Shown piece by piece: positions 19,301-25,784 of a stretch of 64,000 nt of DNA (its first letter is position 1; each line of letters begins with the position of its first letter). The translations under genes and the position numbers were made by a program. The DNA is from a virus. Taxonomy: Duplodnaviria > Caudoviricetes. The notes under the pieces are model-generated. The model was not told the origin of the DNA. It saw nothing but the letters and a program-made list of their open reading frames with translations, and ran no database searches. The stretch is from IMG/VR virus record IMGVR_UViG_3300042914_002678. The stretch is one strand, 5' to 3'.

Positions 19301-19462
19301 ATGCCAAAAAATCAAATAACAAAAGAAGAACTTAAGGTTCGTGTTTTAAAGTTAAAGAATAATCTTTACAAAGAACACATTAGGCACGATATGGATATGA
19401 AGGGACTTGCCAATAAATATCTCAACGAAGTTCTTGATATAATTGATGAGTACAGATATTGA
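19301..19462 (+). CDS. Small hypothetical protein (53 aa)
   Basis: Manual: MPKNQITKEELKVRVLKLKNNLYKEHIRHDMDMKGLANKYLNEVLDIIDEYRY*. Confidence 0.65.
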   Translation: MPKNQITKEELKVRVLKLKNNLYKEHIRHDMDMKGLANKYLNEVLDIIDEYRY

Positions 19463-19889
19463 CTATGAAAACCCTTGGACCTACAATGGAAAAGTATTTG
19501 GTTCAAGTGATATTCAAGATTATTTTGGCTTTGTATATCATATTCATTGCAATCAAACTAATCGTGACTATATTGGTAGAAAGTATTTCTGGAGTTTCCG
19601 CACACCAAGAGGAAAATCTAGAAAAGTTAAATCGGAGTCTGATTGGAAAGCATATTACGGATCCTGTCCAGAACTCAAAGAGGATGTAGACAAATATGGT
19701 AGGGAGAATTTTACGCGCATTATTTTATCATTACATAAAACAAAGGGCAAAACAAACTTTGAAGAGACCCGACAACTCTTCTTCCATAACGTCCTCACCG
19801 AATCCCTTGACAGCGGCACCCCAAGGTACTATAATAGCAACATCCTCAATAGATACTTCCGAAAAGACTATTATGGCAACAAAGACTGA
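19443..19889 (+). CDS. GIY-YIG family endonuclease
   Basis: GFVYHI...RDYIGRK, SDWKAYYGS, the conserved E (NFEETRQ) and YNSNI. Confidence 0.8.
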   Translation: MMSTDIDYENPWTYNGKVFGSSDIQDYFGFVYHIHCNQTNRDYIGRKYFWSFRTPRGKSRKVKSESDWKAYYGSCPELKEDVDKYGRENFTRIILSLHKTKGKTNFEETRQLFFHNVLTESLDSGTPRYYNSNILNRYFRKDYYGNKD

Positions 19890-21653: not shown

Positions 21654-21686
21654 TTGACAATCAAATCCTCAACTGATATGATTGTC
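21654..21686 (+). promoter_or_regulatory. Sigma70-type promoter with an 8-bp inverted repeat
   Basis: TTGACA, 17 nt, TATGAT. GACAATCA-N15-TGATTGTC overlaps both boxes. Confidence 0.75.
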
Positions 21687-21768
21687 TCATGGGTGTTGAG
21701 GGTCCAAACCTCAAGTAAATCCTACCCCTCCCATGCCTCTCACAGAAGCACAAACAGGGAGGTCTCTT

Positions 21769-22010: not shown

Positions 22011-22043
22011 TTGACAATCAAACTCAAAAGGTTTATGATTGTC
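22011..22043 (+). promoter_or_regulatory. Sigma70-type promoter with the same 8-bp inverted repeat
   Basis: TTGACA, 17 nt, TATGAT. GACAATCA-N15-TGATTGTC. Confidence 0.75.
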
Positions 22044-22049
22044 TCACAA

Positions 22050-22121
22050 GCGGAGTTAGTTCAGCGGTAGAACGCTATCCTTCCAAGTTAGATGTCGTCG
22101 GTTCGATTCCGATACTCCGCT
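22050..22121 (+). tRNA. tRNA-Gly(UCC)
   Basis: Anticodon loop ct-TCC-aa, acceptor GCGGAGT/ACTCCGC. Confidence 0.93.
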
Positions 22122-22143
22122 CTGAACCTTCGGGTTCTTAAAA

Positions 22144-22250: not shown

Positions 22251-22322
22251 CCTCTGGTAGTCTATTGGTAAGGACGGGTGGACAACACACATGGAAACTA
22301 GGTTCGATTCCTAGACAGAGGT
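22251..22322 (+). ncRNA. tRNA-like element with a non-canonical anticodon arm (undetermined/pseudo tRNA)
   Basis: Acceptor cctctg/cagagg, D-arm gtct-attggtaa-ggac and T-arm ctagg-TTCGATT-cctag are intact. The anticodon loop lacks U33. Confidence 0.6.
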
Positions 22323-22326
22323 ACAT

Positions 22327-22399
22327 TCCCTTATAGCTCAATTGGCAGAGCACGAAGCTGTTAACTTTGGGGTTCCTGGTTCGAGTCCAGGTGGGGGAG
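22327..22399 (+). tRNA. tRNA-Asn(GUU)
   Basis: cgaag-ct-GTT-aa-ctttg, T-arm cctgg-TTCGAGT-ccagg. Confidence 0.94.
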
Positions 22400-22489
22400 T
22401 TGGAAGTGATCCTGCGATAACCTCAAGAGCACTCCTTCCAACTAAAACCTAGAATATTTCTAGGTCAGGGGGATGGCCTCCCCTGTTTC

Positions 22490-22577: not shown

Positions 22578-23534
22578 ATGGAAATCAACGTATACGATAA
22601 CAAAGGCAATGTATCAAATATCATAGAAGTAAATGATACATTAGAGTATGTAGATGGTAGAGTTAGTAAAGGTGACAAATATTATTACAAAGGATTAGGT
22701 CTTCCTTATCAGTGCCATCATATTCAACCAGAAGATATGTCTGATGAATATGAATTCATCGATGTTTGTGATGTTTTCTATATTGGTAATATAGTCTCTA
22801 AAAAGTCTTTCGCTGGAAAGTATGGTATCTTTCAAGAGAAATACCAAACCCACTTTACTGATTGGATTGGTGCTTGTGGTGTAAAAGAACTCAATATCTT
22901 TGAGAACTTATATGATGAAGGTGGATTTGAGTTAAGTGCTATTGATGTATTTGAATATCAAACCATTGATGAGGAGAACCAGCAATACTATCTTAAGGTT
23001 GATTATCCAGAAGGTAGAGATAACTATTTGACGAATCCAAATCCTAAAGAACTTAGAACATTGCTTGATTATATGATTCAGGAAGATTGGAATTTTCCTT
23101 GGGATAAAAACTCAATCTCAGATATTAACTCAAAATCAAAAGTAACAGATATTGCTGATATCTTTAAGTCATCAGATCTTTCTCATAAGATTGGAAGTGT
23201 ATATTCTGTTCTTCAAAGTTTATATAAAGCAGACATAAACCAATACGCTGAGTTTTGTAATTTAAATTCTTTATCTCATTCTTCAAACAGAATTAGTTTT
23301 ATTATCAATATCCTTGCTCTTTTGCAGTATAATGATATTGATATTAGATTCTTATATGACAAGACACCAATTGAAACTTATAAAAAAATAATTTTTGATT
23401 ATCTAATTATTGGAAAGAACTGTGGTTTTTGTGGAGTTGGTAGTTGTAAAAGACGGGAAGACTCAAACAAATCATACGGAGAAGAAATTAGAGAAGAATA
23501 TATTAGGAGAGCAAAACAAGAACTAAATATCTAA
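22578..23534 (+). CDS. Hypothetical protein (acidic, C-terminal Cys cluster)
   Basis: 318-aa ORF with no recognised motif except CGFCGVGSC. Confidence 0.75.
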   Translation: MEINVYDNKGNVSNIIEVNDTLEYVDGRVSKGDKYYYKGLGLPYQCHHIQPEDMSDEYEFIDVCDVFYIGNIVSKKSFAGKYGIFQEKYQTHFTDWIGACGVKELNIFENLYDEGGFELSAIDVFEYQTIDEENQQYYLKVDYPEGRDNYLTNPNPKELRTLLDYMIQEDWNFPWDKNSISDINSKSKVTDIADIFKSSDLSHKIGSVYSVLQSLYKADINQYAEFCNLNSLSHSSNRISFIINILALLQYNDIDIRFLYDKTPIETYKKIIFDYLIIGKNCGFCGVGSCKRREDSNKSYGEEIREEYIRRAKQELNI

Positions 23535-24003: not shown

Positions 24004-24249
24004 ATGATTATCGTAAGATGCAAAGATTGCAATAGAGAAATAACTAGCACTAATAAAACACAAACTTGTGGTTGTTCAAATATGATGACTGTAAAGGGAG
24101 ATGGTGTATCTGCTGTTGACTTAAGTAGAGTGGTTATGGTAAACTCTACACAGAAAGAACAAAAAAATGTTCTTTCATCATCAGACCTTGCCTATCAAGA
24201 GGCAAGAAGACAGCGAAAAGTCCGTAAATTGGATTTTGAAATTCGCTAA
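24004..24249 (+). CDS. Small Zn-ribbon-like hypothetical protein
   Basis: CKDC...CGCSN, 81 aa. Confidence 0.75.
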   Translation: MIIVRCKDCNREITSTNKTQTCGCSNMMTVKGDGVSAVDLSRVVMVNSTQKEQKNVLSSSDLAYQEARRQRKVRKLDFEIR

Positions 24250-25352: not shown

Positions 25353-25474
25353 TTTTTCATCTAGTTGAAACACTTGCAGCAAGTCCAATTTGGTTGGGTC
25401 TTTGTGGAGCAGGCTTGACAGTAGTTCCAATCCTTGGTATTATATACATACATTCAAAGAACAACGGGGCGTAG
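25349..25474 (+). CDS. Small single-TM peptide (41 aa)
   Basis: Manual: MIFHLVETLAASPIWLGLCGAGLTVVPILGIIYIHSKNNGA*. The stop lies inside the tRNA-Pro 5' end. Confidence 0.55.
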   Translation: MIFHLVETLAASPIWLGLCGAGLTVVPILGIIYIHSKNNGA

Positions 25475-25536
25475 TTCAGCGGTAGAATGCTGGTTTTGGG
25501 AACCAGAGGTCACAGGTTCGATCCCTGTCGCCCCGA
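25465..25536 (+). tRNA. tRNA-Pro(UGG)
   Basis: ctggt-tt-TGG-ga-accag, acceptor CGGGGCG/CGCCCCG. Confidence 0.95.
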
Positions 25537-25553
25537 CTCATAAAAATCACTTT

Positions 25554-25784
25554 ATGAAAATGTATCAAGAACTAAACGAACTTCAATCATTTACAGTTGA
25601 AGAGTTTCAAAAAGATTTTGACAAACTTATAGAAAGAGTTGAGAACGGTGAATCATTTATTATACGAGATGGAAATAAAAACGCTGTGATAGTTCCTTAC
25701 AATGAAACCATAAAGTACGCAATAGAATCTAACGTGGATGATGAATTGATACGTCTCCACACCGACCACGAAGAAGGTTCGTGA
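25554..25784 (+). CDS. Phd/YefM-like antitoxin-fold protein (no adjacent toxin)
   Basis: FTVEEFQKDFDKLIERVENGESFIIRDGNKNAVIVP parallels the Phd/YefM N-terminal beta-alpha-alpha-beta-beta pattern. Confidence 0.65.
   Translation: MKMYQELNELQSFTVEEFQKDFDKLIERVENGESFIIRDGNKNAVIVPYNETIKYAIESNVDDELIRLHTDHEEGS

Follow-up and report, generated by a model that had tools for sequence, protein, structure and literature searches.

A conserved tRNA-like RNA of cyanomyoviruses that carries a capped hairpin in place of the anticodon arm

We found that a 72-nt sequence in a tRNA array of a cyanophage belongs to a real, conserved family of tRNA-like RNAs of cyanomyoviruses, and this family is apparently undescribed. 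The window, that is, the whole stretch of 64,000 nucleotides that was analyzed, is DNA of a T4-like cyanophage, and ARAGORN called 13 tRNAs in it, the element being counted among them. The array runs on one strand in the order tRNA-Gly, a tRNA-like neighbour of 104 nt, the element, tRNA-Asn, and tRNA-Val. The coordinates of the features are given in Table 1. We consider the element to be almost certainly a real functional structured RNA, and we have little doubt that it is non-decoding. The explanation that we favor, with moderate confidence, is that the element is a conserved, phage-only, non-decoding mimic of tRNA, whose tRNA body and capped arm together bind one specific partner.

No prior description was found in the literature, including the paper on S-CREM1 ncRNAs and a survey of 10,006 viral structured RNAs, in a search that left subscription journals mostly outside its scope. 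The family was also absent from Rfam 15, and none of the six phage records inspected annotates it. The element has been overlooked in every annotation inspected, among them that of the model cyanophage S-PM2. The usual view of phage tRNA genes is that they assist codon usage or replace tRNAs destroyed by host defences, and the element fits neither description. It offers a case in which a virus puts the tRNA fold to use outside translation, and the phages concerned control a large part of the aquatic primary producers.

Table 1. Features of the element and of the tRNA array around it
Feature	Position	Strand	Basis
Whole tRNA-shaped RNA, 72 nt; last base is the discriminator position	22251..22322	+	ARAGORN, Rfam tRNA, family model
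Acceptor stem, 5' strand, paired with 22316-22321	22251..22256	+	Covariation
Positions 8-9 and D stem/loop (U13.G22 wobble, G18 G19), nearly invariant	22258..22275	+	Sequence counts
Capped arm replacing the anticodon arm	22276..22291	+	Covariation, RNAalifold
Pentaloop GACAA of the capped arm	22281-22285	+	Sequence counts
Bulged A (A39) of the capped arm	22289	+	Sequence counts
Conserved 6-nt connector, capped arm to T stem	22292..22297	+	Sequence counts
T stem (5 bp) and canonical 7-nt T loop	22298..22314	+	Covariation
Acceptor stem, 3' strand	22316..22321	+	Covariation
Variable discriminator; no CCA encoded after the element	22322	+	Sequence counts
Candidate sigma-70-like promoter 5' of tRNA-Gly, 11/12 consensus matches	22011..22039	+	Consensus scan only
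tRNA-Gly(tcc), upstream array member	22050..22122	+	ARAGORN, Rfam
tRNA-Asn(gtt), begins 3-4 nt past the element	22326..22400	+	ARAGORN, Rfam

Structure of the capped arm and of the tRNA body

Homologues were collected from IMG/VR by two exact-pattern scans on non-overlapping halves of the element, which matched at least 120 and at least 119 contigs. There were 121 distinct sequences of 122 nt (the element with its flanks) among the matches listed, and a family covariance model was built on 54 distinct copies. Because the first scan selected on a D-arm pattern, some of the conservation figures are biased.

The initial annotation had reported the letters and the position of the element accurately, and its parse of the middle arm with a 7-nt loop is also accurate as a literal reading. 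Read in this way, the arm (gggtg-gacaaca-cacat) has one stem mismatch, purines at positions 32 and 33, and CAA as the nominal anticodon. The comparison of homologues did not favor this parse. In the 54 distinct homologues listed, the arm with the 7-nt loop was paired in just 65.9% of the cells, and its pair 29:39 was broken in 37 of the 54 sequences. In contrast, an arm with a 5-nt loop and a bulged A was paired in 90.4% of the cells of the same homologues, and four of its five pairs showed compensatory changes on both sides. The pairs of this capped arm are 26:41, 27:40, 28:38, 29:37, and 30:36, with A39 bulged between the second and the third of them. Pair 26:41 is G.A in the window and A-U in most relatives, and the loop-closing pair 30:36 is G-C in 25, A-U in 16, and C-G in 11 of the 54 homologues listed. 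RNAalifold, without guidance, recovered the three inner pairs and the 5-nt loop, and the minimum-energy fold of the S-CREM1 copy was exactly the capped-arm model. The window element alone gave a minimum-energy fold that is not a cloverleaf, and three homologues folded as cloverleaves.

Positions 30 and 36 show Watson-Crick covariation, so that the loop consists of 5 nt. The 5-nt-loop model outpairs the 7-nt-loop model, RNAalifold agrees with it, and the arm is a defined pentaloop hairpin and no anticodon arm in decay. As judged from the aligned homologues, then, the aberrant-looking arm is a stem of 5 bp with an invariant bulged A and a conserved GAYAA pentaloop. The arm had been described as aberrant, but it is the part that tells the most, and what evolution keeps is the pentaloop hairpin and not the parse with seven loop bases. 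The loop read GACAA in 113 of the 121 distinct sequences listed and GATAA in 6, the other 2 being different, and the bulged A was kept in all 121. The change from C to U at the third loop base occurred in four different stem backgrounds, and a purine was never found there among the 121. The six letters of the connector were identical in 97 of them.

The rest of the molecule was likewise supported by paired changes. In the whole structure, 13 of the 20 pairs changed on both sides and 97% of the cells were paired, a result that none of 500 shuffles reached. Both-sided changes were found in five of the six pairs of the acceptor stem, where 98.8% of the cells were paired, and in four of the five pairs of the T stem. 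In certain lineages the acceptor stem and the T stem were wholly different around an unchanged core. The acceptor, D, and T arms had been called clean; this holds for the D arm, the T arm, and six acceptor pairs, but the seventh acceptor position (7:66), of which nothing had been said, is a mismatch in the window (G at 22257 and A at 22315). The same G.A was found in 106 of the 121 distinct sequences listed, and the remainder had U.C, G-C, U-A, or G.G. A few variants carried an extra C at this junction.

An 18-mer covering positions 8-25 was identical in 115 of the 124 listed copies that had been collected by the pattern excluding this 18-mer, and U13.G22 was present in 117 of the 121 distinct sequences listed. 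The elbow and tertiary pairs U8:A14, G18:U55, and T54:A58 were kept. Moreover, the change of G19 to A was accompanied by the change of C56 to U in all three distinct sequences listed that carry it. The initial annotation had suggested an RNA that mimics the tRNA elbow, and this replacement of G19:C56 by A19:U56 shows selection on that feature. By these substitutions and kept pairs, the L-shape is under selection.

The information content was 1.67 bits per position inside the element, compared with 0.29 and 0.21 bits in the 25-nt flanks. Since the information drops at both borders, the selected unit is exactly tRNA-sized. Pairwise identity was 0.87-0.91 for the element and 0.68-0.82 for the adjoining genuine tRNAs, a difference of which part is ascertainment bias. 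With this caveat on ascertainment, the element seems to be conserved at least as strongly as the tRNAs adjoining it.

These findings bear on the view that the element is a decaying tRNA pseudogene or an assembly error. Its low score with the Rfam tRNA model would suit this view. With RF00005 the element scored 30.7 bits, just above the cut-off of 29, and this only in a scan of a 5-kb region; the gathering scan of the whole window did not list it, and the twelve ordinary tRNAs listed there scored 52-72 bits. It is also unannotated in every deposited genome inspected. However, compensatory changes occur in all variable stems and in one tertiary pair, the same arm is present in all of more than 150 copies, and conservation is above that of the flanks and not below that of the adjoining tRNAs. 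A sequencing error is excluded because a copy with 100% identity is present in the phage DSL-LC03. We therefore consider decay or an assembly error extremely improbable; covariation rules it out as far as sequence analysis reaches. The earlier argument that the odd arm is not what random pseudogenisation would leave is borne out, since the arm is conserved with compensatory changes on more than 150 phage contigs.

Distribution in phages and position in the tRNA array

The element was found on more than 150 IMG/VR cyanophage contigs, and blastn detected it in six isolated species of cyanophage, which represent at least four genera, namely S-PM2, S-RIM32, one S-RIM8 isolate, S-CREM1, S-SZBM1, and DSL-LC03. 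The initial annotation had proposed looking for the unusual loop in other cyanophages; the same arm is present in all of these contigs and isolates. All six isolate copies sit inside a tRNA cluster. No listed homologue had a normal anticodon arm, a finding that would have pointed to recent decay, and in Syn33 and S-CAM9, which are relatives without the element, we found an empty slot and no normal tRNA in its place. A single family-level copy was present in each of the five records scanned (S-PM2, S-RIM32, S-SZBM1, S-CREM1, and a 36-kb fragment, G001) and also in the window.

With the family model, members scored 93-100 bits (100.4 bits for the window element), whereas every ordinary tRNA scored 36 bits or less, a separation that far exceeds chance. 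In 100 genomes of picocyanobacteria and other cyanobacteria the family model gave no match except a phage-like contig of 515 nt in one MAG, and three matches in GTDB bacterial assemblies (L135, L142, and L175) were phage DNA. As far as these genomes and assemblies go, the element is restricted to phages. The three GTDB matches come from cyanophage DNA in bacterial assemblies: one contig of an Acidimicrobiaceae MAG shares 99.85% identity with S-CREM1, another of 413 nt in the assembly of a Clostridium isolate shares 100% identity with S-PM2, and the third match is a phage tRNA array in a Vulcanococcus MAG, which had 69 tRNA matches overall and holds many tiny contigs of this kind.

In the phage collection, isolate RW_03_0807_WH8101 (KX349286.1, L005) was the sole S-RIM8 record matching the element by blastn, which suggests gain or loss of the element between very close isolates. 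One IMG/VR contig (L112:5439-5511, minus strand) carries a truncated copy, in which the 5' half through the pentaloop is followed by unrelated AT-rich sequence. This suggests a recombination or insertion breakpoint just past the loop.

Nearly all listed elements are flanked by tRNAs on the same strand, and in about 70 of the 127 loci listed the next tRNA begins 2-7 nt after the element. The promoter-like site upstream of tRNA-Gly is the likely start of a transcript bearing the element, as far as its match to the consensus indicates. The array context and this site fit co-transcription of the element with the tRNAs and its release by RNase P and 3' processing. A second near-consensus sigma-70-like promoter (11/12 matches) lies inside the tRNA array at 21654-21682 (+), and with two such internal sites, transcription of the array may be divided among several short units.

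The tRNA arrays of such phages are packed with other structured RNAs. The window contains the cyanophage RNA motifs wcaG, PhotoRC-II, abiF, and the glutamine riboswitch. Here the abiF RNA (RF03085, 44 bits) is located at 21727-21763 (+) and ends 4 nt 5' of tRNA-Arg; the order of abiF followed by a tRNA is also seen in S-CREM1, there before tRNA-Gly. Annotated wcaG, manA, and abiF RNAs are found within about 650 nt of the S-CREM1 copy of the element.

Such crowding would suit the view that the element serves as processing punctuation. That is, the tRNA shape would merely recruit RNase P and RNase Z to form the ends of neighbouring RNAs, as in the role of mascRNA for MALAT1, and the excised piece would have no job of its own. 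The tRNA-like spacing to the flanking tRNAs agrees with this, as does the permuted tRNA mimic that ends 3 nt upstream of the element here and in eight other loci listed. However, any ordinary tRNA would serve this purpose, and one usually follows within 2-7 nt. Punctuation would also leave unexplained why the pentaloop and the bulged A are invariant and the D arm nearly so in copies whose acceptor and T stems have been rewritten. We regard it as quite improbable.

The same upstream mimic had been thought to form a pair with the element. This stood only in a loose sense: the mimic accompanies the element in 25 of the 157 loci listed, a count in which blastn may miss divergent copies, and it is absent from S-PM2 and S-RIM32. 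Obligate pairing was rejected on this count. From their distribution, the two seem to share arrays in one lineage without being an obligate pair.

Decoding, charging and ancestry

The element has no U33, no purine 37, and no anticodon loop of seven bases. Because the loop is closed to 5 bases, U33 is missing, and the nominal anticodon differs between copies, the element cannot decode, as had been suspected in the initial annotation. ARAGORN nevertheless does assign anticodons to it, which could be taken to mean that it is an unusual tRNA that still decodes through an odd loop size, a frameshift, or recoding. The name given to the window element is tRNA-Leu(caa), but among the 127 copies listed the calls were Leu 61, His 25, Val 3, Cys 2, and undetermined 11, with no call in 25, and the S-PM2 copy received a two-base anticodon 'ca'. 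Even if the closing pair 30:36 were opened in spite of its covariation, the central triplet would read ACA or AUA, two triplets that differ in meaning. A decoding role is, in our opinion, scarcely conceivable. No tmRNA was called by ARAGORN in the window.

The changing false identities (Leu, His, Val, and Cys) inflate and distort phage tRNA repertoires in studies of codon usage and host range. A dedicated covariance model would cure this misnaming, since its members score at least 93 bits and ordinary tRNAs at most 36.

The element shares with canonical tRNA (RF00005) its 72 nt, the acceptor, D, and T arms, G18 G19 with a T54-U55-C56 loop, and U8:A14, as well as the position in an array, the tRNA-like spacing, and the lack of an encoded CCA, which is also seen in the neighbouring tRNA-Asn. 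It differs in having no 7-nt anticodon loop, no stable anticodon identity, and a position 7:66 that is usually mismatched. The proposal that the RNA is chargeable found no support. The discriminator was A in 68, T in 41, C in 9, and G in 3 of the 121 distinct sequences listed, the acceptor pairs change freely, and CCA directly followed the discriminator in just 5 of the 121. The acceptor-end identity sets G3:U70 (Ala), G-1/C73 (His), and U73 (Gly) showed no conservation among the copies listed. Aminoacylation of the element thus seems unlikely from its sequence.

The D arm points in one direction. Among the canonical tRNAs in the genomes of 185,579 bacterial species, the exact 16-nt D arm was found in tRNA-Glu only (seven of seven), and in cyanophage loci the U13.G22 D stem was otherwise confined to tRNA-Glu and phage tRNA-Gln. 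Other measures gave different rankings. Core identity to canonical tRNAs was highest for Gln, followed by Glu and His at about the same level; profile HMMs placed His at or above Gln; and the family model ranked His and Glu about equally and above Gln in phages, and tRNA-Gly(UCC) first in hosts. Because the D arm, core identity, HMMs, and family model disagree, no isotype was assigned. Descent from tRNA-Glu is not claimed, since the isotype differs between the four methods. The sequence makes the element, in our view, a derivative of the tRNA class with a short variable loop.

This D arm is one reason to consider that the element might be a charged carrier outside the ribosome. Most plausibly, the host non-discriminating GluRS would glutamylate the RNA, and the load would pass to a non-ribosomal enzyme such as glutamyl-tRNA reductase, with which the synthesis of chlorophyll, haem, and bilins begins, so that this supply would be uncoupled from translation; alternatively, the uncharged element would bind GluRS or glutamyl-tRNA reductase as an inhibitor. 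The D stem with U13.G22 is of the Glu/Gln type in cyanophage loci, and the major determinants of GluRS include U11-A24, U13.G22:A46, and the lack of residue 47, N73 not being required (PMC9976931). U11-A24 was invariant in the alignment of 54 sequences, which was itself collected via the D arm. In addition, the hosts of the isolated carriers are all phycobilisome-bearing Synechococcus, and cpeT lies just upstream of the element in a minority of the loci (17 of about 123 listed).

The plastid trnE of Balanophoraceae provides a precedent. It is a documented descendant of tRNA-Glu and is presumed to persist for the sake of tetrapyrrole synthesis (PMC13128298, 10.1101/2025.10.06.680833). Like the element, it is under purifying selection, has lost or changed its anticodon, and is given different names by tRNA finders even in closely related genomes (PMC13128298, 10.1101/2025.10.06.680833). 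The pattern of conservation is opposite, however: in Balanophoraceae the acceptor and T arms are kept while the D arm and the anticodon drift, whereas the element holds its D arm and its new, defined pentaloop constant, and compensatory changes accumulate in its acceptor stem.

Other points also speak against a carrier. The strongest determinants of GluRS (U34, U35, C36, and A37) are missing together with the anticodon loop, and G1-C72 and U2-A71 are not present. Residue 47 is absent by length, yet the arm supported by covariation leaves a connector of 6 nt, so that this determinant is ambiguous, and the equivalent of A46 is A in 91% and U in about 9% of the distinct sequences listed. The acceptor stem and discriminator vary freely, and the isotype of origin depends on the method. 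A charged carrier of this kind is rather unlikely. The more specific form, that is, a dedicated glutamyl carrier derived from tRNA-Glx, charged by GluRS via an augmented D helix, unusable by the ribosome, and feeding only glutamyl-tRNA reductase, would have a slim chance of being correct. If it were true, the element would be an auxiliary metabolic gene at the RNA level, parallel to ho1, pebS, and cpeT and to trnE of Balanophoraceae, and its glutamate would reach chlorophyll, haem, and bilin synthesis during infection.

Proposed action and comparison with known RNAs

We propose that the non-decoding mimic acts as follows. The element would be transcribed inside the phage tRNA array, RNase P would free its 5' end, and 3' trimming and CCA addition would follow; RNase P cleavage at the start of tRNA-Asn would set the 3' trailer of the element. 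Maturation like that of a tRNA is, judging from the array, quite probable. The released RNA would adopt the normal L-shape with the anticodon arm swapped for a closed hairpin. The closed loop would read no codon and would offer no anticodon loop for nucleases to cut. The element may thus be a high-affinity ligand of one specific partner, with the invariant D arm and the elbow as the first contact and the pentaloop and the bulged A as a second, sequence-specific contact.

The likeliest partner would be a protein that grips the body of a tRNA, namely a tRNA enzyme or a host protein that senses tRNAs or acts on them in defence. A role as a decoy or inhibitor of a tRNA-directed host factor is conceivable but doubtful from the sequence. 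Because a general decoy competes with the large pool of host tRNAs, an unusually tight and specific interaction would be needed. A decoy that resists anticodon nucleases, as suggested in the initial annotation, is one possible form of this role, but the compact GNRA-like loop is unlike the open anticodon loop that anticodon nucleases bind, which speaks against it.

The pentaloop has a counterpart in the boxB hairpin of phage P22, the binding site of the N peptide (PDB 1A4T), in which identical GACAA letters stand on a short stem. The P22 loop has a GNRA-like fold, and its third base is looped out and touches the N peptide (PMC12550061). The looped-out base corresponds to the sole variable loop position of the element, where only C to U occurs. 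By this analogy we infer that the pentaloop is of the P22 boxB type with a GNRA-like fold. P22 boxB differs in being part of an mRNA nut site next to boxA that serves antitermination, whereas the hairpin of the element is an arm of a tRNA-shaped RNA and carries a bulged A. GAYAA hairpins resembling boxB showed no excess in the window (25, compared with 19.5 +/- 4.2 expected), and no N-like partner protein was found in the gene-neighbourhood analysis.

The single tolerated change in the loop can also be read in another way. GAC and GAU are both aspartate codons, so that the sole tolerated change (C to U in four stem backgrounds with no purines, 121 sequences listed) is a synonymous one. As a codon mimic, an idea drawn from the letters only, the loop would form a kissing contact of up to four pairs with the anticodon loop of tRNA-Asp (U33-Q34-U35-C36) and would shield or sequester this tRNA. 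A looped-out pyrimidine touched by a protein, as in P22 boxB, also fits the pattern, however, and a closed GNRA-like pentaloop has poor geometry for a kiss of three pairs. A tRNA-Asp gene is also not consistently linked to the element in the loci listed. We think that such a codon mimic is highly unlikely.

Three other groups of RNAs resemble the proposed tRNA mimic in part. RNase P and RNase Z cut the mascRNA and the MEN-beta tRNA-like RNA out of a longer transcript, and both RNAs receive a CCA tail. Like the element, they are small and tRNA-like with a reduced anticodon loop, although comparable processing of the element is only inferred. They differ in being eukaryotic and unrelated in sequence, and RF01684 gave no Rfam match on the element at E values up to 10. 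The 'species 1 and 2' RNAs of T4 (rnaC and rnaD) are small stable RNAs of unknown function processed from the T4 tRNA cluster; they are longer and not cloverleaf-sized, and are likened to the element by description only. RNAs of the mascRNA type are processed by tRNA enzymes (PMC9976931). YrlA (RF02553) is an ncRNA of bacteria and mycobacteriophages that also mimics the body and elbow of tRNA (PMC4201824). It is longer, with its tRNA-like module joined to a long Ro-binding helix, whereas the element is tRNA-sized with free acceptor ends; the YrlA model gave no Rfam match on the element, whose 72 nt contain no extra helix.

For the partner search, ORFs within 3 kb were clustered over the 161 loci listed, and these gene neighbourhoods revealed no partner specific to the element. 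The commonest neighbour was a CxxC protein of 81-86 aa, present in 94 of the 130 eligible loci listed and encoded in the window at 24004-24249 (+), which matched no Pfam family. It was rejected as a partner because it occurs in 91 cyanophage records, many of them without the element. A ferritin/Dps-like gene (Pfam PF00210; 23554-23988 (+) in the window) lies downstream of the element in 74 of the 133 loci listed; this protein and the other neighbours were rejected as reflecting local synteny.

Three further ORFs lie in or near the array of the window. An ORF of 318 aa at 22578-23534 (+), directly after tRNA-Val, had no Pfam match. A homing endonuclease of the SegE type (GIY-YIG) is encoded upstream of the array at 19443-19889 (+), and an ORF with a weak Phd/YefM-like antitoxin domain is located at 25434-25784 (+), between tRNA-Pro and tRNA-Ile.
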